64,000 nucleotides of DNA from the NCBI GenBank assembly GCA_947169385.1, contig CAMVPR010000011.1:1534-65533 (forward strand), written 5' to 3'. The position numbers and the translations under genes were made by a program. The notes beneath the pieces are model-generated. The model was not told the DNA's origin. It ran no database searches and was given only the letters and a program-made list of their open reading frames with translations. Shown here piece by piece: positions 1 through 12,175 of the stretch (its first letter is position 1; each line of letters starts with the position of its first letter). This DNA comes from an uncultured Lachnospiraceae bacterium. Its GTDB lineage: Bacteria; Bacillota; Clostridia; Lachnospirales; Lachnospiraceae.

Positions 1-1
1 A

Positions 2-610
2 GAGGTTAACTACTACCGTGACAGCGACAACGCTGTGGATATCACCAAGTTAAAAGAAAGAAAGATGACAGATATCAGAATCAGGGACTTTGGATTTGTC
101 TTTCAGCAAATGCATCTTGTCAGTAACCTTTCTTTGTTGGAAAATGTAGCTGTCAGCGGCTATCTTGATAAGAATGCAAATGCAAAAGAGGTTAGAGCTA
201 AAGCTAACAAACTTCTTGACAGGATGGGTCTTAAAGACGTTAAGGGTAACCTTCCTTCAAGGGTATCGGGAGGAGAACAGCAGAGGTGCTCAATTGCAAG
301 AGCGGTAATCAATTCTCCTAAGGTATTGTTTGCAGATGAGCCTACAGGTGCGTTGAACAGGAAGAATACAACAGAGGTTCTTGATCTTCTGACTGAACTT
401 AACGATCAGGGGCAAAGCATAGTGATGGTAACGCACGACATTAAGGCTGCATATCGTGGCAACAGACTTTTGTATCTTGATGACGGCAAAATCGTTGGAG
501 AGTTAAAGCTTCTTAAGTATAACGAGCTTGACGAGAAGGGTGAGAGAGTCTTGAGTGACAAGGCCAGAGAAGCGCAGGTTAACGCTTGGCTTGAGTCACT
601 TGACTGGTAA
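2..610 (+). CDS. ABC transporter ATP-binding subunit (LolD/MacB-like), 5' end outside the window
   Basis: Signature SGGEQQR, Walker B VLFADEPTGAL and H-loop VTHD. The frame is open from nt 2, so Walker A lies upstream of the window. Confidence 0.9.
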   Translation, partial: EVNYYRDSDNAVDITKLKERKMTDIRIRDFGFVFQQMHLVSNLSLLENVAVSGYLDKNANAKEVRAKANKLLDRMGLKDVKGNLPSRVSGGEQQRCSIARAVINSPKVLFADEPTGALNRKNTTEVLDLLTELNDQGQSIVMVTHDIKAAYRGNRLLYLDDGKIVGELKLLKYNELDEKGERVLSDKAREAQVNAWLESLDW

Positions 611-645
611 GATTTTGGTTGAAGATTACGAAAGGAATGAATGTT

Positions 646-3069
646 ATGGATATATTTACGCTTGTAAAAGCCGGAATAAAGAACAGATGGAATGTTTTTT
701 TGGGCTTTACATTTCTAACAATGATTATGGTTGTAAGCGTTGTTACCATGCTTGGTGTAAGGAAGAATTTTAACGCTTCTAAGGAGACGGCATACGCTAT
801 TGAAGATAAGGGAGTGATTGCCGGACAGTTTAGATATGGATATTTTACTCCTATGCTAAAACAAAAGCTCGAAAAAAACGATCAGGTAGACAGTTTAGAG
901 ATTTATGACAGCGTTGTGGGTAAAGGCATTAAATGTAATGGTAATAGTGAAGGCAACGGATATTATTTTATGAAAAACTTTGGTAAGCTTCCTATATTCA
1001 ACGAGGATTCAACCGGATTTATCAACTATAAATATGAAGATGGAAAGTATGTTGAGATAAAGGATTCCTCATATGATTTAAAGAGCGGAGAGATCTATCT
1101 TCCTTACGGGTTAAAGGATAGATTTGATGCAAATGTTGGAGATAGGATAAGTGTTAATTTCTTAAGCGGACCTAAGACATTTACCATAAAAGGATTTGTT
1201 CAGGAACCGCTAATGGGTTCTAATATCATTGGAATTAAGATGGTGTTTATAAGTGATGAGGATTTTGACAAGATATATAGCGATTGTACTAAAATGATTG
1301 AAACGGATGATGATGTTTGGGGAGCAGGAAATGTTGTGTTCGTGCATCCGACAGGTAAGGCTGACAAATCATCAGATATATTTCTTAGAGATCTTAACCT
1401 TAAGACCAAGATAAATGACATGGCATTTTCTGTAATGACCAAGGATCTTTCTGAGCACTATACCGGAATGTTTATCAATGTTATTATGGCGATGATTGTG
1501 GGAATAACCGTAATCTTAATGGTGATTTTCCTTATTGTTGCAGGACATAGTATAACAACTGAGCTTGATATTGACTATAAAGATCTTGGAATCCTTAAAA
1601 GCCAGGGTGCAAGCAGTTCGTTGATTAGAACTGTTTATATCGTTGAATATATATTTGCTCAGTTAGTTGGGTGCTTATTGGCATTTGTCATATCTATACC
1701 TTGCGAGAGAAAGTTAAGTGATGTATTTTTTGAAATGACAGGTATGTTGCCGGAGAGGAATTTTCCTGTTATCGAGGGTATACTAATAAGTTTGGGACTG
1801 TTTATAATAACAGGTATCTACATTTTCATGTTTACAAGAAAAGTTGTTAAGACTACTCCTGTCAAGGCTATCACAAGCGGGCATGATGATTTTTATTTCG
1901 ACAGCAGATATAATGCGCCGGTTACAAAGAGAGGCTTAGGTTTTATGATGGGCCTTAGACAGATTACTTCCGCACCAAAAAGGTATATAAGTATTGTTAT
2001 CGTGTCGTCATTATTGATATTTTCTGCAATTACTGTGGAACTGATGTCGGTTTACATAGAGTCAAGAGACGCGTTATCTTCGATGGGGACACCGATATGC
2101 GACATTGAGTTTGGATTTACCAATTCAGAACCTAAGTGTGAGGTTAAGGATGTTGAAAATGTCATTAACAAGTACACTAAGATTAAGGCTAGATCATACA
2201 TTTCGCATGTATATATATCAGTCAACGGCGAGCCGATATTAGCTGTTGTTAAGGGATATCCCGACGAGCTAAGTTCAGTCTACAAGGGACGAGAGATTAA
2301 GTATGATAATGAAATAGTTATAACCGAGCAGGTAGCTAAGCTTCTTGATATTGATATTGGGGATACTGTTTCTATTGGAAGATTCGAGAATAATGAAGAC
2401 TACGTTGTCGTAGGAATCTTTCAGTCAGTATCTGATACCGGCAAATGTATATCGATGTCGTTAGACGGTCTCAGCAGATTAAGAAATGATCCATCGGATA
2501 AATACACTATCAATAATCTCGGTGGATACGGGGTAGTTCTTGAAGATGCCTCATGTGCTGATAAAATAGCCAAAGAGGTTAAGGATAAATATGGCGAGGA
2601 TATCAAGATCAAGGCAATCCCATATGAAGACTTTATGGAGCAGATAGGTGACAGCTTTTACATGGCTGCTGATGCAAGTAAATACCTGATTTATGCGTTG
2701 GCGATAATATTTGCCGTAGTTACGGTTATTATGGTATGTCTAAAGGTGTTTATTCAGGAGAGAACTGACATCGGAATTATGCGAGCCGTAGGTTTCAGCG
2801 TTTCAAGAATCAGGAGACAATTTGCTGCTAGATTTGTTATAATCGGAATTATAAGTGGTGTTATAGGAGCGGTTATGGCAAGACTTTGGGCCGGGGCCTT
2901 GATGGAGGATATATTCTCTATGTTTGGAGTTCCGCATATCGAGTTGGAATATTCTATTTTAGCATTTGCAAAACCGGTCGTACTCTTTATAATAATGTAT
3001 ATGATATTCGGTTATCTTTCATCAAGAAAGGTTAAGAAGGTTAGTGCAAGAGAGCTTATCAATGAGTGA
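646..3069 (+). CDS. FtsX/MacB-type ABC permease with two FtsX repeats
   Basis: Multiple TM segments and two FtsX motifs (DLGILKSQGAS, DIGIMRAVGFS). Start chosen from RBS AAAGGA at 631-636; the ORF track starts at 619. Confidence 0.85.
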   Translation: MDIFTLVKAGIKNRWNVFLGFTFLTMIMVVSVVTMLGVRKNFNASKETAYAIEDKGVIAGQFRYGYFTPMLKQKLEKNDQVDSLEIYDSVVGKGIKCNGNSEGNGYYFMKNFGKLPIFNEDSTGFINYKYEDGKYVEIKDSSYDLKSGEIYLPYGLKDRFDANVGDRISVNFLSGPKTFTIKGFVQEPLMGSNIIGIKMVFISDEDFDKIYSDCTKMIETDDDVWGAGNVVFVHPTGKADKSSDIFLRDLNLKTKINDMAFSVMTKDLSEHYTGMFINVIMAMIVGITVILMVIFLIVAGHSITTELDIDYKDLGILKSQGASSSLIRTVYIVEYIFAQLVGCLLAFVISIPCERKLSDVFFEMTGMLPERNFPVIEGILISLGLFIITGIYIFMFTRKVVKTTPVKAITSGHDDFYFDSRYNAPVTKRGLGFMMGLRQITSAPKRYISIVIVSSLLIFSAITVELMSVYIESRDALSSMGTPICDIEFGFTNSEPKCEVKDVENVINKYTKIKARSYISHVYISVNGEPILAVVKGYPDELSSVYKGREIKYDNEIVITEQVAKLLDIDIGDTVSIGRFENNEDYVVVGIFQSVSDTGKCISMSLDGLSRLRNDPSDKYTINNLGGYGVVLEDASCADKIAKEVKDKYGEDIKIKAIPYEDFMEQIGDSFYMAADASKYLIYALAIIFAVVTVIMVCLKVFIQERTDIGIMRAVGFSVSRIRRQFAARFVIIGIISGVIGAVMARLWAGALMEDIFSMFGVPHIELEYSILAFAKPVVLFIIMYMIFGYLSSRKVKKVSARELINE

Positions 3070-3088
3070 TAAGGGAGATGATTCTTAG

Positions 3089-3763
3089 ATGTGGAAGATT
3101 CTTATTGTTGACGATGATCAGGCGTTGTCTGATATTACGAAGGACATGCTTGAGTCGTATGATTATGAAGTAGAGCAGGCGGGCAGTGTGGACGAGGCGT
3201 TCACGCTGCTTACCGATAACAGATATGATCTGATTATATTGGATATTAATCTGCCGGATGGGACGGGATTTGACGTGTGTGAGGAACTGCGTGAAGTCTC
3301 GTCTGTTCCTGTTGTTTTTGCGAGTGCGAGGACAAGTGTGGATGACAAAGTTGTAGGATTCGAAAAGGGTGCTGATGATTATATCCCTAAGCCGTACTCA
3401 ATGAAGGAGCTTCTTGTCAGGGTAAATGCAATAATCAGAAGAACCTATGGGCATAATGAGGCTGAGGAGAAGGTTGAGTTCGGAGATGTTGTCGTTAATC
3501 TTTCGGCAAGGAGTGTAATGAAAGGTGGCAAGATAATTTCCCTTTCACTAAAGGAGTTTGATCTGCTTGCATTTTTATGCCGCAATAAAGGTGAAGCAAT
3601 CGAGAAAGACAAGCTTATATCTGAGGTTTGGGGTGCATTTAGCGAGGTTGACAACTCGACACTTACGGTTCATATAAGGTGGCTTAGAGAGAAACTTGAG
3701 GACGATCCGTCTAAACCTACGCATATTAAAACGGTATTTAAGGTCGGCTATATCTTGGAGTGA
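3089..3763 (+). CDS. OmpR-family response regulator
   Basis: Receiver motifs ILIVDDD, LIILDINLPDG and KP, plus a winged-helix C-terminus (VHIRWLREKLE, IKTVFKVGY). Confidence 0.95.
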   Translation: MWKILIVDDDQALSDITKDMLESYDYEVEQAGSVDEAFTLLTDNRYDLIILDINLPDGTGFDVCEELREVSSVPVVFASARTSVDDKVVGFEKGADDYIPKPYSMKELLVRVNAIIRRTYGHNEAEEKVEFGDVVVNLSARSVMKGGKIISLSLKEFDLLAFLCRNKGEAIEKDKLISEVWGAFSEVDNSTLTVHIRWLREKLEDDPSKPTHIKTVFKVGYILE

Positions 3764-3778
3764 TGATGGAGGTGCGTG

Positions 3779-4924
3779 ATGGACAAAAGATTGAGCGCAA
3801 TTGCAGGTGTATATATACTGCTTATGATTGCTGTATTTCTGTTAATTGCCGGTGGAATAAAGAAGCAGGAGAATGAGAAGTTATCTGAATCAGCCGAGTT
3901 GAGTGTTATGGCAAATGAAATCAGACAAAGCGCTGAAGCAGGAGATAAAGAAGAGGTGCTTAGACTGTGTGATGAACTGGATGAAAGACATAGCAGCAAT
4001 AATAAACCATTATTAATCATTATCATTCCTGTGATAATAAGTATTGCAGGCGTATTAACTATGCTTGGTTATCTTAATGCCAGAGTGATTAGACCATTCT
4101 CTAATCTTGAAGATTTTGCAGGCGAGATAGCAAAGGGAAATTTCGAAACACCTCTTATGGTAACGAGAGAGAATTTCTTTGGAGATTTTACGTGGGCATT
4201 TGACAATATGCGTCACGAGATGATTAAGAGCAGAGCGAGAGAGCGTGAAGCGATTGAGAATAACAAGACGGTTATAGCTACGCTTTCTCACGATATTAAG
4301 ACCCCGGTTGCATCGATAAGAACGTACTCTGAGGCGTTTGAAGCCAATATGGACAGCACGCCTGAAAAGAGACAGAAGTACCTTTCGATTCTTATGGCTA
4401 AGTGTGATGAAGTAAGTAAGCTGACTAACGATCTATTTCTTCACTCGATTTCTGAGATGAACAGGTTAGAGGTTAGCAGTGAGGAGATTGAGATAGTTTC
4501 ATTTGTAAATGAAGAAGTTGCTAAGCTTTTCGCAAATGAAGAGGATGTCGTACTAAACCTTCCGGATAGTGAGATTGTTGTAAATGCTGACCCTAAGAGG
4601 CTTTTACAGGTGTTTGAGAATCTTAAGAACAACGCCGATAAATACGCGAAGACTAAGATTGAGATAAGTCTTGACATAGGTGAAGAAGTGAAGATTCATT
4701 TTCGTGACTTTGGAAATGGCATACCCGAGGAGGATATTCCTTTTATTACCGATAAGTTCTATAGGGGAAGAAATGTTGGGGATGAGAATGGCTCGGGATT
4801 GGGGCTTTATATAGTAGATGAACTGATGAATAAGATGGGTGGCAAGGTGATTCTGATTAATAAGAATCCGGGACTTGATGTGGTGCTTGAGTTATCTACA
4901 GGTCACCTTCATAAGAAAGCATGA
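3779..4924 (+). CDS. HAMP sensor histidine kinase
   Basis: Two TM segments, HAMP, H-box LSHDIKTP, N-box NNADKY and G-boxes DFGNGI and GSGLGL. Confidence 0.93.
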   Translation: MDKRLSAIAGVYILLMIAVFLLIAGGIKKQENEKLSESAELSVMANEIRQSAEAGDKEEVLRLCDELDERHSSNNKPLLIIIIPVIISIAGVLTMLGYLNARVIRPFSNLEDFAGEIAKGNFETPLMVTRENFFGDFTWAFDNMRHEMIKSRAREREAIENNKTVIATLSHDIKTPVASIRTYSEAFEANMDSTPEKRQKYLSILMAKCDEVSKLTNDLFLHSISEMNRLEVSSEEIEIVSFVNEEVAKLFANEEDVVLNLPDSEIVVNADPKRLLQVFENLKNNADKYAKTKIEISLDIGEEVKIHFRDFGNGIPEEDIPFITDKFYRGRNVGDENGSGLGLYIVDELMNKMGGKVILINKNPGLDVVLELSTGHLHKKA

Positions 4925-5324
4925 TTTTTAGTAATCTTATAAGTTCTAAAGTGTCTTTGCGGCCAAGTTTTTTAAGGAGCCCCTGGTATTCTTTTCTGAT
5001 TGAGTCACGTCGTTTCTTCTCTTCGGTGATACCGTCCTTGGTGATGTTGACAACTACGCGTCTTCTGTCGGCTTTGTCACGTGTTCTTACTATATATCCT
5101 TTGTATTCGAGACTTGATAAAATGTCTGTCATTCTTCCCGGAACTATGTGTAGGTACTTGGATAGTTCGCCGGCACACTCGCCGTCCTTGATGTAGGTAA
5201 GATAGTGAAGCGTGCCGTATTCACCACGCACGCTGTCCTGAACGGATCTGTTGACACGGCGGTTAAGCATTTCTGCCAACAGCATATATAACTCTTCTCC
5301 TAAGTTGTCCTCTTTTTTGCTCAT
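4896..5324 (-). CDS. MarR-family transcriptional regulator
   Basis: Wing motif LEYKGYIVRTRDKADRRRVVVNITKDG. ATG at 5324 has RBS AAGGGAG. Divergent from the NRPS-like gene. Confidence 0.88.
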   Translation of the reverse strand: MSKKEDNLGEELYMLLAEMLNRRVNRSVQDSVRGEYGTLHYLTYIKDGECAGELSKYLHIVPGRMTDILSSLEYKGYIVRTRDKADRRRVVVNITKDGITEEKKRRDSIRKEYQGLLKKLGRKDTLELIRLLKIMLSYEGDL

Positions 5325-5467: not shown

Positions 5468-5492
5468 ATTTATTTCGCGTTGCGAAATAAAT
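5468..5492. promoter_or_regulatory. Perfect 11-3-11 inverted repeat, likely MarR operator
   Basis: ATTTATTTCGC-GTT-GCGAAATAAAT, lying between the divergent marR and NRPS-like genes. Confidence 0.65.
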
Positions 5493-5522: not shown

Positions 5523-5543
5523 TTATTTCGCAGTACGAAAAAA
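5523..5543. promoter_or_regulatory. Second, imperfect operator copy abutting the RBS
   Basis: TTATTTCGC-AGT-ACGAAAAAA has the same left arm and 3-nt spacer, and runs into AAGGAG. Confidence 0.55.
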
Positions 5544-5557
5544 GGAGAGTATTATAA

Positions 5558-8500
5558 ATGATAACACGCGAAAACACTAAGACACTTTATGATTTGTTGA
5601 AAAATGCCGGAACACAGTATGCTTCGAGAATATTCCTAAAGTACGAGCGCGCGGAGGTATTCTATTGCAATACATACAGCGAGCTTTATAAGGATAGCTG
5701 CTCTTTCGGTGCATGGGTAAGTGAACAAGGGGATTGCCCGCATGTTGCACTTTTGGGTGATTGTAGTTACAGATATTTGAATGCGCTTTTCGGTACGGTG
5801 AGCGCGGGAGGAATTGCGGTTCCTATCGATACGAAGGCCGGTACTGCAAGTATTATTGAGCGTATCAACAAGGCGGAAACCGACATTTTATTATATGACT
5901 GGGATTTTCATGATGAGATAGATTTATATAAAGAGAAATGTCCGACGGTTAAGGAGTTTATCTGCATTCAGAATATGCAGGAACAGTCGGTACATAACAT
6001 TTGCAAAAACTACAGAAACAATTCTTTTGAACCTAAGGCAGAAGAAGATAAATGTGCTCTTATTATCTTTACATCAGGTACGACAGGTAAGGGCAAAGGC
6101 GTTATGCTTTCACACGGCAACCTTATTGACAACATTTTCAATAGTACAGAGGTTGAGAAGCAGGACAATGAGGTTGCGCTTAATGTGCTTCCGATTCATC
6201 ACGTGTTTTGTTTGAGCGGAGATGTTTTTCTGACTATGAGATATGGAAGCAAGCTGTGCTTGTGTCCTGATGTTTCTAAGTTATTCCACTATATTACAGT
6301 GTTTAAGCCGACTGTTCTGCGTGCGGTTCCAATGATCAGTAAGACGATTTATAATAGAATCGTTATGTTACACAGGAAGAATAAGGATGCAACAAGAAGG
6401 CAGATTAAGGACGAACTGTTGGGTTCTGATTTTCATAAGATAATAAGCGGTGGTGGCTACCTGGCTAAGGAGCTTGCGCTTAATCTTATCGGTCTTGGGA
6501 TATCCATCGGACAAGGTTATGGAATGTCTGAGTGTTCGCCTAAGATTGCGGCGCCTGACTACGAGCGACTTGAGAAGCTTGATTCTGTAGGACGGTTGGT
6601 AGAGGGTTGCGAAGTAAGATTTGTTGACGGCGAGATTCAGGTTAAGAGTCCGTCGGTTATGATGGGGTATTATAACGATGAGGAGCTTACCAAGGAGACT
6701 TTGACAGAAGACGGCTGGCTCATGACGGGAGATTTGGGTTATGTAGATGATGAGGATTTCCTCTATCTTACCGGACGCAAGAAGAATCTTATTATTCTCA
6801 GCAACGGTGAAAATGTTGCACCTGAGGGAATTGAGAACATGTTTGACGATGAGGTTCTCATTAAAGACATTATGGTATATGGTGATGGCGATACAATAGC
6901 AGCCTGCGTTTATCCTAATTACGAGTACGCTCAAGCTCAGAATATAACTGATGTTGAAGGTGCGGTAAATGATATCGTTAACATCAAGAATGTTGCACTT
7001 CCAACCTCCTCACAGATTATGAAATGTTCGGTTAGAAAGCATCCGTTTAAGAAGACATCTTCCAACAAGATTATTCGTGAACAGTTCTTTGAGGACCTTA
7101 AGAACGAGGAGGCAAGAAAGAGCGAGCTTACTCTTCCTGTTAATGACATGCAGAAAGAGCTCTGCCAGCTTATTGCAGATATTACGGGTAACGATACAGT
7201 CGGAACAACCGAAGACTTCTACGATATCGGTCTTGACTCAATGGGCAGCGTTATGCTTATTGAGGAGCTTGACGAACGCTTTAGCGTCAATATTTCCCTA
7301 AGCGAGCTTATCGAGAACAACACCGTTCTCTTGCTTGAAGAGTTCATTAACAATAAGGCAAATGAAAATGAAGACGGCATTGATTACAGTGTTAGAGAAG
7401 AGTATCCGCTTACCAATATTCAGATGTACTTCGGATATATCATCAAGGGCAACACAACGGGTAATCTTCCTTTCCTATACAAGCTCGGAGACAAGATTGA
7501 TCTTGTTAGACTTAAAGACGCAATACTTAGAGCATTTGACGCGCATCCAATACTAAAGGCCAACATTCATTTTAATGGACAGATGCTAATGACCTACAGA
7601 GATGATTCTAAGGTTATTTCTATTCCGATTGAGAAAATGAGTGAAGCTGATTGGGAAGAGAAGAAGAAGACGCTTGTTACTCCGTTTAAGTATACCGAAG
7701 ATGATGATCTTGTGCATGTATTCTTATCAGAAACTGAGAGTGGCAAATACTTCTTTATTGATGTTGCGCACATTATTGGTGACGGAATATCTATCGGTAT
7801 TTTGCTTAAGGACATCAATAAGGCTTATTGTAATGAAGAGGTTGAGCCTGAGAAGTTTACCTTCTTTGATTTCGCACTTTTGGATAATGCCAGAAGGACC
7901 AACGGTGTAAGAGAATCTGATATTAAGAGAACCGGTGAGCTTATGAAGGGTGCGTTGCTTAACAGAAGTATACTTAATAAACGCCTTGCACCGGATACAT
8001 TTGAGAAGAAATACGGTGTTATCACAAGCAGATTTGAGCACCTTACAAGAAAGGAGATTCTATACTATTGTAAGCAGAACGGTGTGTCAGAAAATGTTAT
8101 GTTTTTGACTGCTTTTAATTACCTGATATACCTGTTCTCTGATCAGGATGATGTATTTGCCAACAGCATTCACAGTGGTCGTACCGACAGCCGTTACGCT
8201 CATATGGTAGGCTCGCTGTTTATTACATACTTCTGTAGATTTACCAGAAAGCCACATGAGACTGTCATTGACCTTCTTAAGAAGACAGGAGCACAGATTA
8301 TGAAGACTATGAAGAATTCTGTGTCAAATGCAAGACAGGGCGAGATGTTCTTCCAGTATCAGGGTGACATTTTAGGACTCAAGGAAATCGGTGATGCCAA
8401 GGCTACAAGGTATCATTTGCAGCTTGATTCCCTTCCGTTCCATATGCAGGTGTTTAACGATGACAAGGGATATTATCAAGAGCTTAGATTCTGGGAGAAT

Positions 8501-9139
8501 CGTTTTGATGAGGAGCAGCTTAAGATATTCTTGACCTGTTACGAGTATATTTTGCTTGCGATGCTTCATGAGACGTCTGTCAGAAGGCTTAAGAGACATT
8601 TGCCTGAGGAGGTATTCCCTAAGCATTTCATCATTTCTACCAAGAAGTTGAACGAGGAGGCAGGAGTAAGACTTGTTGATGCGAGAAGACGCGAATGCAA
8701 GGTGTATGTGCTTGATGAGAGCTATCAGAAGAAGCCTTACGGAGCGTGGGGTAAGCTATATATCAAAGATATGGTTCCGACCCAATATAGCAAGGTAGTT
8801 GCGAGTCGTTACAGCGAGGGTGACCTCTACGAGACTGATATAATCGCAAGGATATTGCCTGACGGAACCTTGGATATGCTTGAGAATAACGGTAGAACTG
8901 TAATTACCGACGGTGTTCATGGGCTTAGAAAGTTCCCTCTTAAAGATGTTGAAAATGCAATCAACTCGATTGATAATGTCGAAAATGCAGACGCTTATCT
9001 ATACTTTGATTCAGAGATCAATGAGATGAGTCTTGCTGTCAATGTAGAGACAGATGGTGTAAATGCAGACGAGATTATAGCCTACATGACTGAGAACCAT
9101 GATCCTAACTTGGTTCCTAAGGTTGTTAATGTAAAATAA
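5558..9139 (+). CDS. NRPS-like multidomain protein: acyl-adenylating domain, carrier (T) domain, condensation domain, vestigial A-domain fragment
   Basis: A motifs FTSGTTGKGKG, GYGMSE, TGDLG and GRKKNLII. Carrier motif GLDSMG. C motif AHIIGDG. The C-terminal KVYVLDE..GAWGKLYIK..LYETD..ARILPDGTL resembles a decayed A domain. Confidence 0.85.
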   Translation: MITRENTKTLYDLLKNAGTQYASRIFLKYERAEVFYCNTYSELYKDSCSFGAWVSEQGDCPHVALLGDCSYRYLNALFGTVSAGGIAVPIDTKAGTASIIERINKAETDILLYDWDFHDEIDLYKEKCPTVKEFICIQNMQEQSVHNICKNYRNNSFEPKAEEDKCALIIFTSGTTGKGKGVMLSHGNLIDNIFNSTEVEKQDNEVALNVLPIHHVFCLSGDVFLTMRYGSKLCLCPDVSKLFHYITVFKPTVLRAVPMISKTIYNRIVMLHRKNKDATRRQIKDELLGSDFHKIISGGGYLAKELALNLIGLGISIGQGYGMSECSPKIAAPDYERLEKLDSVGRLVEGCEVRFVDGEIQVKSPSVMMGYYNDEELTKETLTEDGWLMTGDLGYVDDEDFLYLTGRKKNLIILSNGENVAPEGIENMFDDEVLIKDIMVYGDGDTIAACVYPNYEYAQAQNITDVEGAVNDIVNIKNVALPTSSQIMKCSVRKHPFKKTSSNKIIREQFFEDLKNEEARKSELTLPVNDMQKELCQLIADITGNDTVGTTEDFYDIGLDSMGSVMLIEELDERFSVNISLSELIENNTVLLLEEFINNKANENEDGIDYSVREEYPLTNIQMYFGYIIKGNTTGNLPFLYKLGDKIDLVRLKDAILRAFDAHPILKANIHFNGQMLMTYRDDSKVISIPIEKMSEADWEEKKKTLVTPFKYTEDDDLVHVFLSETESGKYFFIDVAHIIGDGISIGILLKDINKAYCNEEVEPEKFTFFDFALLDNARRTNGVRESDIKRTGELMKGALLNRSILNKRLAPDTFEKKYGVITSRFEHLTRKEILYYCKQNGVSENVMFLTAFNYLIYLFSDQDDVFANSIHSGRTDSRYAHMVGSLFITYFCRFTRKPHETVIDLLKKTGAQIMKTMKNSVSNARQGEMFFQYQGDILGLKEIGDAKATRYHLQLDSLPFHMQVFNDDKGYYQELRFWENRFDEEQLKIFLTCYEYILLAMLHETSVRRLKRHLPEEVFPKHFIISTKKLNEEAGVRLVDARRRECKVYVLDESYQKKPYGAWGKLYIKDMVPTQYSKVVASRYSEGDLYETDIIARILPDGTLDMLENNGRTVITDGVHGLRKFPLKDVENAINSIDNVENADAYLYFDSEINEMSLAVNVETDGVNADEIIAYMTENHDPNLVPKVVNVK

Positions 9140-9396: not shown

Positions 9397-10431
9397 ATGT
9401 ATAATATTTATTATCAAGATATATTCGTTTTTTCAATTGATAACGGATTAGTTAATATTATATCTCCTAAATATATGCCTTTCGATATTTATTTGGAAGA
9501 AAATGATGACATAGACACAAGGGTTAATAATCAAACTAATTTTAACGCTTGGTGCGCAGGGCGAATCTTGCCGTTAGACAGAGAATATGCAAAAGAGATT
9601 CTTAATTATTTCGGTTATAATCAAAGTCTAACCGATAAAGAAAGAGCCAAAATAGCTATTGCTACAAGATGTCTTTCTATTAATGATTGTTTTTGGTTAA
9701 AAAGTGAATCTGAGGAATTAACATGGAAAGATGTTAATTTATTTGAGAATAGCTTACAGGATGGTATTTTCGAGACCGCCTTAACCGGTAAATCAATAAT
9801 AGTGACGAATAAAGAATTAGTAACACCTGACATTTCTACGGACGGTGTTGCTCCTAAAGCATGGTTGAGAAAGAATAATGAATTTTACTTGTTGAAGGGC
9901 GATAAAAACGATTCTGTAGTTAAGGAAACCGAAGCTTCTCAGATTCTTAGTTATTTAGGGTTTAAGAATGCGGGATATAAAATATCTGATTTCAAGGGTT
10001 CTCTTGTATCTACAACTGAATGTTTTACTAATCAAAGTGTCAATTTTGTTAAGGCTGAATGGTTTAATATATGGTGTATGAACAATAATCGCAGTATCAA
10101 AGATTTCATTGATGAAGATGAATTTGATAAGATGAACTTGGCTGATTATCTGATTGGCAATAATGATGAACATTCATATAATTGGGGATTTTTATATGAT
10201 AATGAAATGAATATATTATCTCTTAACCCTATGATGGATTTTGATCACGCATTTGAAAGTACAGACGAATCGCCATGTTTACCTGAAAAACTTCTTGGTA
10301 ATAATACAACACAAAAAGAAAATGCTATAAATATAGTGAAAAAGCATCCTGATTGGATAAAAAAGGATGTAGATTTATCAAAATATAAGTATGGTGAATA
10401 TGTTAGTCAGAGGTTAAACTTATTATTATAA
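9397..10431 (+). CDS. HipA/CtkA-like Ser/Thr kinase
   Basis: P-loop-like DGVAPKAW, catalytic loop DYLIGNNDEHSYNWG and Mg-binding PMMDFDHAF. Visibly more AT-rich than its neighbours. Confidence 0.7.
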   Translation: MYNIYYQDIFVFSIDNGLVNIISPKYMPFDIYLEENDDIDTRVNNQTNFNAWCAGRILPLDREYAKEILNYFGYNQSLTDKERAKIAIATRCLSINDCFWLKSESEELTWKDVNLFENSLQDGIFETALTGKSIIVTNKELVTPDISTDGVAPKAWLRKNNEFYLLKGDKNDSVVKETEASQILSYLGFKNAGYKISDFKGSLVSTTECFTNQSVNFVKAEWFNIWCMNNNRSIKDFIDEDEFDKMNLADYLIGNNDEHSYNWGFLYDNEMNILSLNPMMDFDHAFESTDESPCLPEKLLGNNTTQKENAINIVKKHPDWIKKDVDLSKYKYGEYVSQRLNLLL

Positions 10432-10585: not shown

Positions 10586-10720
10586 CGATATAAAATACTA
10601 TACTACGTATAGCATTTTATATGTATACGGTTTAATGATATTAGTATTTAATGTGCATACACATGGATAAAAATATGTTATAATACATATTGTATTACAT
10701 CAATATTAGGAGGAATGATT

Positions 10721-12175
10721 ATGAGATGTTATATTAATTCATATAATGTGTCAATCAGGCGATTTGTAAGCTTATTAACAGCGTTTGTATTAGTGACTGG
10801 GTTGATTTCATTTGCACCGGCAAATGCTGCAGGTGCGCCTGCATTTGACGCTGAATTGACAGATGACAATATTATAAGTTTGCTGGATGTGTATGACAGT
10901 GACGCTGCACACATTCTTAAAGCCCAAAAGAAAAAAGGCGATTCATTTGCATCGTGGTATTTTGGTGCTAATAATTTGGCAGAAGCAGTAGATACAACAG
11001 TTCACGAAGAGTTTCATGCATATACATTCTATCAGTCTAGTAAATTTAACGCTGAGCGTTTCTACTTAGGGGATGGTAAGGATGTTGAGGTTAGTGAGAC
11101 GGATGTTTTTACAACGTATGACGCAACTAAATCCATTCCTGACAAATATCGTACATTTCGATATGATACCTATGTAAGCGAGACGTCAAATAGCAGTTCA
11201 AACGTATCGGGCGTTTATGGATTGATTAATGAGTTTTGTGCATATTACTGGGGAATGCATGCCTCTGAGTCGTTATATGATTACATTCACGAGAATTCCA
11301 ATACCATCAACAGTTGGAGAATGTATTATTCGGATTATAATAACAACAGAAATGCGTACGCAGAGTTTTATTACTATACTTTGGTCTATCTTAAGTACGC
11401 TAAGGAGAATAAACCTAACATTTACAAAGATATAATCAATAACAGTAACTATATTAAGGTTTTCTCTACCATGGAGAAGAAATATCGCCAGTTAATGAGT
11501 GAATACGAATCCGATTTAGATAAGATTTCGTATGAATATAACGGCAGTGGGTTTAAAGATAACTGTGAAGATGGTATGTTTAAGCTTAAGAACTACTCAT
11601 TCGGATCAGATGATGACTATGCGCTTTTGATGCCGTTGATTAATTCTGATGAGTATAAAGAATTCAGGGTTGCTCTTGGGGTTGAAGGTAATGAATCTAA
11701 ATCGACCGAGTCAACTGTTACGACAGAAGTGCCTACAACAACCGAAACCGTAGGTACTACTGAAGCTGTTTCAACCACCGAAAATGAAGCTACTACAGAA
11801 GCTGTCACGACTACCGAAACACCAACCACCACAGAGGCTACTTCAACAACTGAGGCAGCAAGCACAACAGAAGCCACAGACACGCCTAAGGCTAAACAGA
11901 AGAATCCGCTTAAAGTAAAAGTTACCAAGAAGACATACAAGAGAAAGAAGTTGAAGAAAGCTACGAAGCTTAATATAGGGCTATCTAATATAGAAACGCC
12001 GATTACGTATGTATTTAATTCTAAAGTATATGGTGCGGGATTTAAGTTATCAAGTGATGGGAATATCATCATCCCGAAGAAGTGTAAGAAAGGTACATAT
12101 AAGATTACTATAAAAGCAAGTGCGACAAAGGAGTATAAAGCAACGACCAAGAAGATAACAATAGTCGTTAAATAA
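10721..12175 (+). CDS. Secreted protein, putative zinc metallopeptidase, with Thr/Glu-rich linker and basic C-terminal domain
   Basis: Signal peptide (…FAPANA), HEEFH motif, downstream NEFCAY, TTE-rich linker and Lys-rich C-terminus. RBS AGGAGG at 10708. Confidence 0.6.
   Translation: MRCYINSYNVSIRRFVSLLTAFVLVTGLISFAPANAAGAPAFDAELTDDNIISLLDVYDSDAAHILKAQKKKGDSFASWYFGANNLAEAVDTTVHEEFHAYTFYQSSKFNAERFYLGDGKDVEVSETDVFTTYDATKSIPDKYRTFRYDTYVSETSNSSSNVSGVYGLINEFCAYYWGMHASESLYDYIHENSNTINSWRMYYSDYNNNRNAYAEFYYYTLVYLKYAKENKPNIYKDIINNSNYIKVFSTMEKKYRQLMSEYESDLDKISYEYNGSGFKDNCEDGMFKLKNYSFGSDDDYALLMPLINSDEYKEFRVALGVEGNESKSTESTVTTEVPTTTETVGTTEAVSTTENEATTEAVTTTETPTTTEATSTTEAASTTEATDTPKAKQKNPLKVKVTKKTYKRKKLKKATKLNIGLSNIETPITYVFNSKVYGAGFKLSSDGNIIIPKKCKKGTYKITIKASATKEYKATTKKITIVVK

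Follow-up and report, generated by a model that had tools for sequence, protein, structure and literature searches.

A widespread family of fused nonribosomal peptide synthetase-like A-T-C proteins with a conserved A-domain stub, predicted to conjugate acyl groups in gut and rumen Lachnospiraceae

The stretch of DNA analysed here (hereafter, the window) comprises 64,000 nucleotides of contig CAMVPR010000011.1 from the genome of an uncultured Lachnospiraceae bacterium (assembly GCA_947169385.1). At positions 5558-9139 of its forward strand, it contains an open reading frame (ORF) for a protein of 1193 amino acids (aa), hereafter the synthetase, with an ATG start codon and the sequence AAGGAGA just upstream; a divergent gene for a MarR-family regulator and two predicted operators precede it (Table 1). 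The synthetase combines the adenylation (A), carrier (T) and condensation (C) domains of a nonribosomal peptide synthetase (NRPS) and ends in a fragment of a second A domain, which we call the stub. Pfam matches were obtained to AMP-binding (residues 38-372, E = 1.4e-54), AMP-binding_C_3 (410-516), PP-binding (534-597, E = 1.6e-11) and Condensation (613-920, E = 1.7e-29), and the AlphaFold model of the full-length protein has a pLDDT of 87.5 and a pTM of 0.84. An initial annotation, made from the sequence alone, had listed this anatomy together with the GLDS serine of the carrier and the AHIIGDG motif of the C domain, and the ORF coordinates, Pfam matches and alignments show all these features to be real. 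New are the fixed A-T-C architecture with a stub that spans motifs A6-A9, a C-domain clade that stands apart from the C proteins of the fatty-acid amide (FAA) pathway, the MarR/operator unit and the breadth of the family, whereas the chemistry, NRPS-like acyl transfer, is of an already known kind.

Table 1. Domains of the synthetase and regulatory features upstream of its gene (positions in the window)
Feature	Position	Residues	Strand	Basis and details
Adenylation domain, acyl-/aryl-CoA-ligase branch of the ANL superfamily	5558..7117	1-520	+	Pfam, NCBIfam and PDB matches, invariant columns
Carrier (T) domain	7145..7357	530-600	+	GLDS; attachment Ser561, codon 7238-7240
Condensation domain	7385..8692	610-1045	+	AHIIGDG; His738 codon 7769-7771
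Stub of NRPS amino-acid-type A domain	8693..9136	1046-1193	+	last core strands (A6, A7) and small C-terminal subdomain to A9
MarR-family regulator, divergent	4896..5324		-	likely start ATG at 5324 (MSKKEDN...), preceded by AAAAGGGAG
Predicted operator O1, perfect palindrome ATTTATTTCGC-GTT-GCGAAATAAAT	5468..5492		.	MarR/synthetase intergenic region; palindrome scan
Predicted operator O2, ATTTCGCAGTACGAAAA, second motif copy abutting the ribosome-binding site	5525..5541		.	motif match

The synthetase belongs to a large family with a uniform domain organization. A word-index search yielded more than 850 relatives, and the best 120 of these are almost all about 1200 aa long, align over 97-100% of the query, share the same four Pfam domains and range down to 48% identity; where members of the family are named at all, they are annotated just as 'AMP-binding protein', and full-text literature searches found no paper on the fused A-T-C-stub family. 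At least 593 loci with a relative of the synthetase were recovered in a scan of one genome per GTDB species, most of them in Lachnospiraceae and Clostridium of gut or rumen origin. The 80 best species loci all come from Lachnospiraceae, Clostridium, Eubacteriales or Oscillospiraceae, and these bacteria inhabit human, mouse, chicken, rabbit and, above all, ruminant guts. Cultured carriers of the gene include strains of Lacrimispora, Catenibacillus scindens, Brotaphodocola catenula and Oribacterium. An exhaustive search of representatives with a profile of the C domain plus the stub, dominated by giant multi-C NRPSs, added, at 50% identity, about ten clusters of full-length family members and a small number of fragments. 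The distribution is patchy: the gene is present in two of the seven other genomes of the same genus that were searched, several of them 97-99% complete, and in about 4 of the 151 genus representatives of Lachnospiraceae (~3%). In one metagenomic family member, P0250 (1158 aa, N-terminally cut), the stub is followed by the first ~200 residues of another AMP-binding enzyme; a natural fusion, a read-through in gene calling or a second ligase next to the gene could explain this extension.

The core motifs of the A domain are complete (TSGTTGKGKG 172-181, QGYGMSE 319-325, TGD 390-392, GRKKN 406-410 and K504) and, in an alignment of 70 sequences, are invariant or almost so, the first of them in the form TSGTTGxxKG. 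NCBIfam places this domain with acyl-CoA ligases, not with amino-acid A domains. Its best matches in the PDB are 4-coumarate-CoA ligase and MenE, and feruloyl-CoA synthetase and fatty-acyl-CoA synthetases are also found (E ~1e-25 to 4e-30), as is a carboxylic acid reductase (CAR). The comparison that bears most directly on the donor is with the FAA pathway, with its A protein that activates fatty acids and its C protein that accepts free amines (PMC10871352; PMC13310621); examples are the Oaa A protein, OaaACP and OaaC of Coprococcus eutactus and ecf/ebf of Enterocloster (Chang et al. 2021, via PMC13310621 and PMC10871352). We compared five FAA-type regions from Lachnospiraceae, Ruminococcus and metagenomes (L117-L121), three reached via stand-alone C proteins and two via A proteins. 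The gene order hydrolase, C, T, A is found in all five; a gene for a phosphopantetheinyl transferase (PPTase), or an unannotated gene of PPTase size, is present in three, a TetR gene in at least two and an SCP2 protein in at least one, with a small gene at the same position in two more. In this, the regions match the FAA cluster described previously (PMC10871352; PMC13310621). Full-length alignments of the A domain with FAA-type A proteins, recognised by cluster gene order, show 36-39% identity (E ~1e-107 to 1e-114), and the top free-standing matches of a database-wide search (40-42% identity, E ~1e-117 to 1e-126) are FAA-type A proteins as well, with the gene context confirmed for two of them. 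Because the A domain is far closer to the A proteins of FAA clusters than to any aryl-CoA ligase, a fatty-acid donor is supported, in agreement with the carboxylic- or fatty-acid-type A domain of the initial annotation. As judged from these sequence relationships, the donor would be a carboxylic acid that lacks an alpha-amino group, most likely a fatty acid of medium or long chain length.

Among 70 relatives, the carrier residues G558, D560 and S561 do not vary, nor do H738, D742 and G743 of the C domain, the motif of which takes the form [AS]Hxx[GA]DG across the family. The closest PDB sequence matches of the C domain are the C domains of TycC, LgrA and BmdB, and Foldseek gave TMt values of 0.69-0.80 to solved C domains; PapA5 (1q9j) is a weak match, and VibH and OaaC are not among the PDB sequence matches. 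Lachnospiraceae genomes encode many C proteins that stand alone, are ~470 aa long and contain DHMTMDA or NHLIMDA motifs. In BLASTP comparisons with FAA C proteins, the identity was 26-33% over fewer than 90 residues, and in a maximum-likelihood tree 14 family C domains and 5 FAA-like C proteins formed two separate, long-stemmed clades, both fully supported (100%). The approximately unbiased (AU) test rejects one joint clade (p = 0.0116), so membership of the FAA clade is ruled out by tree and test together. In this limited tree, the nearest neighbours of the family are N-terminal, starter-position C domains of Lachnospiraceae NRPSs, a weak grouping (SH-aLRT 81). The initial annotation had suggested a single-chain version of the FAA system and had pointed to C-domain phylogeny as a check; descent from that system is not supported, given the separate clade and the A-T-C order of the domains as opposed to C-T-A. 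Because its C domain falls outside the FAA clade and its domain order differs, the synthetase counts as an analogue of that pathway rather than its fused form and, on the evidence of these comparisons, is best seen as an FAA-like A domain assembled with an NRPS-derived C-A piece.

The nature of that piece is apparent from the stub, ~148 aa (1046-1193) that are homologous only to A6-A9 of amino-acid-type NRPS A domains. The single sequence matches McyB with E = 3e-4, and a profile of the last ~150 residues of 47 relatives matches SrfA-C 787-937 (E = 1.9e-17), LgrA (E = 3e-15), TycB (E = 9e-15) and PheA 354-503 (E = 3e-11). The stub contains A6 (KVYVLDE...GAWGKLYI), A7 (LYETD, with TDI where the canonical YxTGD has TGD), A8 (GRTV...G..G) and A9 (LVP), and the protein ends before the A10 lysine. 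Motifs A1-A5, with the P-loop and the amino-acid pocket, the A10 lysine and a downstream carrier are absent from the stub region in all 47 aligned relatives, and the A6-A7 loop is also lost in some members of the family (L083, P0250, P0346). Because A1-A5 and the A10 lysine are lost, the stub cannot adenylate; because its profile fits NRPS A domains and not the synthetase's own A domain, it is the remnant of an NRPS-type A domain once encoded 3' of the C domain. An internal duplication of the first A domain was ruled out (hhalign E = 0.17, versus 1e-17 to NRPS A domains).

The initial annotation considered the second A domain decayed, and this part of it does not hold. The blocks KKPxGAWG, ARILPDG, GR and LxxLE of the stub are strongly conserved. 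In six pairs of relatives, non-synonymous differences (pN) were 0.07-0.29 in the A domain, 0.18-0.38 in the T domain, 0.09-0.24 in the C domain and 0.13-0.34 in the stub, whereas synonymous differences (pS) were 0.64-0.90, and above 0.7 in the stub; selection is measured here as the contrast between pN and pS, with synonymous sites saturated in most of the pair-by-domain comparisons. Because pN lies far below saturated pS, all four parts of the protein, the stub included, are under purifying selection; relaxed selection on the C domain was looked for and not found. In the AlphaFold model the stub has a pLDDT of 83-96, and in a model of the C domain plus the stub (pLDDT 92.3, pTM 0.90) it folds confidently on the C domain. 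The top Foldseek matches of this C-terminal part are the C-A didomains of Txo2, LgrA, AB3403 and SrfA-C (~925-960 columns, TMq 0.68-0.72), compared with TMq of 0.54-0.61 for structures matched over the C domain alone, which suggests that the modelled stub is packed on the C domain about where the same part of an A domain lies on a C-A platform. We propose that it acts as a structural brace and maybe also as an element of the acceptor side, a role to which its conservation and the confident joint model point.

With regard to origin, the derivation by truncation of a longer NRPS put forward in the initial annotation stands in part: the stub is NRPS-derived and such descent is plausible, but truncation is incomplete as an account since not only must all sequence beyond A9 have been lost, but A1-A5 must also have been deleted internally. 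Nor was the event recent: the architecture is old, and it is shared throughout the family, in at least 593 species genomes. It can be derived most economically from a lipo-initiation module of the type acyl ligase (AL)-T-C-A-T by loss of most of the second A domain and of all that followed it.

Clustering of the neighbouring genes in 82 related loci ruled out a conserved gene cluster and brought out just MarR and occasional two-component systems. In these loci, no thioesterase, carrier, PPTase, decarboxylase or tailoring enzyme is conserved beside the synthetase gene, and the other recurrent neighbours are housekeeping or transport genes (SpoIVB, GyrB, nucleoside hydrolase, ABC, MatE). The genes of the window and the 82 loci thus bear out that the synthetase is a stand-alone A-T-C enzyme with no partner genes and with no thioesterase, PPTase or tailoring gene nearby.

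A MarR gene of the same cluster as that in the window lies directly upstream of the synthetase gene in 20 of the 82 loci, usually in the same direction and not divergently as here. The regulator in the window matches MarR and SarA/Rot in Pfam; HpaR, BilQ and FabT are its best NCBIfam matches but fall far below the cut-offs. The motif TTTCG[CT]N3[GA]CGAAA occurs upstream of the synthetase gene in 13 of 19 MarR-adjacent loci versus 4 of 55 others, with just two occurrences in the remaining 1.07 Mb of locus DNA, and a second site placed like O2 is present in three further loci (L009, L021 and L018). This is good comparative evidence for a predicted unit of MarR, operator and synthetase.

In the window, a BceAB-like module occupies positions 2-4924, just upstream of MarR, and consists of an ABC ATPase (2-610), an 816-aa FtsX-type permease (619-3069), an OmpR-type response regulator (3089-3763) and a histidine kinase (3776-4924). 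A partnership of this transporter and two-component system with the synthetase is unsupported and, because the module is not conserved beside relatives of the synthetase, it is probably an independent unit for peptide-antibiotic sensing and efflux. Downstream, a 344-aa ORF (9397-10431), which the initial annotation had flagged as an orphan HipA-like kinase, matches HipA_C of Pfam below the threshold (E = 1.3e-4, 22 bits; cut-off 30.5 bits) and has no match in NCBIfam; it is likewise not a conserved neighbour. It is followed by an ORF (10715-12175) for a 486-aa secreted protein with a Thr/Glu/Ala-rich repeat linker (TTTE...STTE) and a Lys-rich C-terminus that has no match in Pfam or NCBIfam. 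In one subclade, the deepest of the family with ~41% identity to the synthetase of the window, the synthetase gene is adjoined by a gene for an Abhydrolase_3 protein (HSL-type esterase/lipase), upstream and divergent in L056, L057, L065 and L066 and downstream in L064; this enzyme could supply the free acid substrate.

The rest of the host genome (2.76 Mb, 100% complete) narrows the possible partners of the synthetase, which holds the sole C domain; there is no other NRPS, and the one other enzyme of the ANL superfamily is weakly similar. Four PP-binding domains are encoded, three of them in other proteins. The sole gene of the PPTase family, on contig 47, encodes an Sfp-type enzyme of 231 aa with an AASDHPPT_N domain, and because it is the only one, this single enzyme must serve every carrier protein of the genome. 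It sits in an apparent operon with genes for a small acyl carrier protein (ACP, 113 aa) and a 352-aa protein (contig 47, ~2407-4509; locus L126), and this operon may be a separate carrier-dependent system. Because the complete genome contains no other C domain or NRPS, the acceptor of the synthetase cannot be an NRPS-bound aminoacyl group.

Our preferred interpretation, to which we give slightly better than even chances, is that the synthetase is a self-contained, one-module NRPS-like acyl-transfer enzyme that forms an amide with a free amine or amino acid. The ANL domain would adenylate a carboxylic acid, most likely a fatty acid, and then transfer it as a thioester to the phosphopantetheine arm on Ser561, itself presumably installed by the lone Sfp-type PPTase encoded on another contig. 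The carrier would present the bound acyl group at the donor side of the C domain, where His738 would promote its attack by a nucleophile that diffuses freely, most probably a primary amine or amino acid, to give an N-acyl amide; the attack would free the product and regenerate the carrier, so that neither a thioesterase nor a second carrier would be needed. The C-terminal 148 aa would be left over from the A domain of a lipo-initiation module of the AL-T-C-A type and would persist as a folded brace on the C domain that may shape its acceptor side. In about one quarter of the 82 loci, expression would be controlled by the MarR repressor through the palindromic operator, which would fit induction by a small acidic or lipid ligand. 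We infer the identities of the donor, acceptor and product as well as what the stub does. Transfer to a soluble acceptor is the simplest reading of the release step because the genome lacks a second NRPS carrier or A domain and the protein lacks a thioesterase or reductase. An amine or amino acid is the likeliest acceptor because elongation-type C domains evolved to position an alpha-amine, and it is further favoured by the precedents of VibH, the terminal C domains of rhabdopeptide synthetases and OaaC.

Several observations weigh against this interpretation. An identity of 36-42% to FAA A proteins leaves the substrate unfixed, and 4-coumarate, succinylbenzoate, feruloyl and fatty-acid ligases score alike among its PDB relatives. 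Only one clade of C enzymes that join fatty acids to free amines has been characterised in these bacteria, and the C domain of the synthetase does not belong to it, so that the use of a free amine is argued from the lack of alternatives and not from homology, and relatives of the C domain elsewhere make esters too. Furthermore, at least one sampled genome (G139) holds both an FAA-size stand-alone C protein and a member of the fused family, and the products of the two systems therefore probably differ.

Ester formation is the first of the alternatives, and we regard it as unlikely. Activation and loading of the carrier would proceed in the same way, but the C domain would acylate a hydroxyl group, with a hydroxy acid, a glycerolipid or lysolipid, a sugar or an envelope polymer as candidate acceptors, and the protein would be an acyltransferase of lipid or envelope remodelling. 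PapA5, SgcC5, the Fum14 T-C didomain and WS/DGAT are ester-forming members of the C superfamily that use the same HxxxD chemistry, and the weak match to PapA5, the position of the C domain outside the amine-using clade and the Abhydrolase_3 gene that adjoins the synthetase gene in one deep subclade all fit this possibility. It is hard to reconcile with the lack of membrane segments in the protein and of lipid or polysaccharide genes nearby, and because the distribution is patchy and accessory, a core role in the envelope is argued against; moreover, elongation-type C domains ancestrally used an amine as their acceptor.

A different donor is improbable to a similar degree. The synthetase might conjugate a non-fatty acid of the gut or rumen, such as a hydroxycinnamic, phenyl-substituted or bile acid, sensed by MarR, for detoxification or signalling. 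MarR regulators commonly respond to phenolic acids, the weak best NCBIfam matches of this one include HpaR and BilQ, the habitat is plant-fed guts, and the solved structures that best match the A domain are 4-coumarate-CoA ligase, MenE and feruloyl-CoA synthetase. However, at E ~1e-107 to 1e-126, the A proteins of FAA clusters are far nearer to the A domain than the aryl-CoA ligases (E ~1e-30).

Less probable still, and in our view quite improbable, is a loading module that acts in trans, with the C domain condensing the acyl group onto a substrate held by a separate carrier, for example the contig-47 ACP beside the PPTase. No carrier or A-domain partner co-occurs with the synthetase in the 82 loci, and the genome offers just one other, weakly similar ANL enzyme and no other C domain, even though three further PP-binding proteins are encoded, one of them in the ACP/352-aa/Sfp-PPTase operon, and the C domain descends from an elongation-type C domain with a carrier-bound acceptor. 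That the synthetase is a functionless, decaying relic of a longer NRPS, as its incomplete second A domain and missing release domain might suggest, is barely credible in view of the identical architecture in hundreds of species, the invariant catalytic residues, the low pN relative to saturated pS in every part including the stub, the confident predicted fold and the conservation of regulator and operator alongside the gene.

The fatty-acid amides of gut Clostridia act on host G protein-coupled receptors and have been linked to inflammatory bowel disease (PMC13310621; PMC10871352). Studies so far have dealt with split A/T/C clusters only. The fused family is present in hundreds of species of gut and rumen; it would probably be missed by searches that start from the FAA C protein, and it could make a different set of acyl conjugates. 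A bolder extension, which we put forward as tentative and rather doubtful, is that the family gives gut and rumen Lachnospiraceae another route to N-acyl lipid signals or detoxification conjugates, independent in its architecture, which MarR switches on when it senses the free acid and in which the repurposed stub serves as a gate or specificity element on the acceptor side. If the stub does gate the acceptor side, this would be a new role for a fragment of an A domain. The family is also a natural experiment on which part of an A domain a C domain must keep for stability or function, and a compact A-T-C unit that needs no partner is attractive for biocatalytic amide formation.

Among known systems, the canonical C-A-T module of NRPSs requires a complete A domain (A1-A10) and an acceptor T domain after the C domain, of which the synthetase has A6-A9 only. 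The closer likeness is to lipo-initiation modules (acyl-ligase-T-C-A-T..., for example the first module of PvdL), which share with it a fatty-acyl-ligase-type A domain, a T domain, a C domain and then NRPS A-domain sequence; this is the most plausible ancestral architecture, and the matches obtained by sequence and by fold include PvdL and further C-A structures. The synthetase differs from them in that its downstream A domain is devoid of the amino-acid pocket, the P-loop and the catalytic lysine, an acceptor T domain and further modules are missing, and the gene stands alone.

Precedents for the proposed release step come from VibH, which acylates norspermidine in vibriobactin synthesis, and from the terminal C domains of rhabdopeptide/xenortide synthetases, which also accept free amines. 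These C domains combine a carrier-bound acyl donor with a soluble amine acceptor and need no thioesterase, as we propose for the synthetase, but the PDB sequence searches, in which VibH was not among the matches, detected no specific kinship with its C domain; they occur on their own or at the end of multi-module lines, and an A-domain stub is not known from any of them. The principle of a single chain that activates a non-canonical acid, loads itself and releases the product via one C-terminal domain is known from Ebony-type amine-conjugating A-T enzymes and from further monomodular NRPS-like A-T-X enzymes such as CAR (A-T-R), in which, however, the release domain is AANAT-like, a reductase or a thioesterase and not an NRPS C domain followed by a vestigial A domain.

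The FAA pathway resembles the synthetase in taxa and habitat and, if our proposal is correct, in its chemistry as well, with an acid that is adenylated, loaded onto a carrier and released by the C domain without a thioesterase. The two differ in organization: separate C, T and A genes in the FAA cluster correspond to one A-T-C-stub chain of 1193 aa, and the hydrolase, SCP2 and PPTase companions of the former are found neither in the window nor in the 82 loci of the synthetase family. The C motif is (D/H)HxxxD(S/A) in the FAA proteins and [AS]HxxGDG in the fused family, at least two of the FAA-type clusters are accompanied by TetR where the fused family has MarR, and the A-domain stub is a feature of the fused family only.

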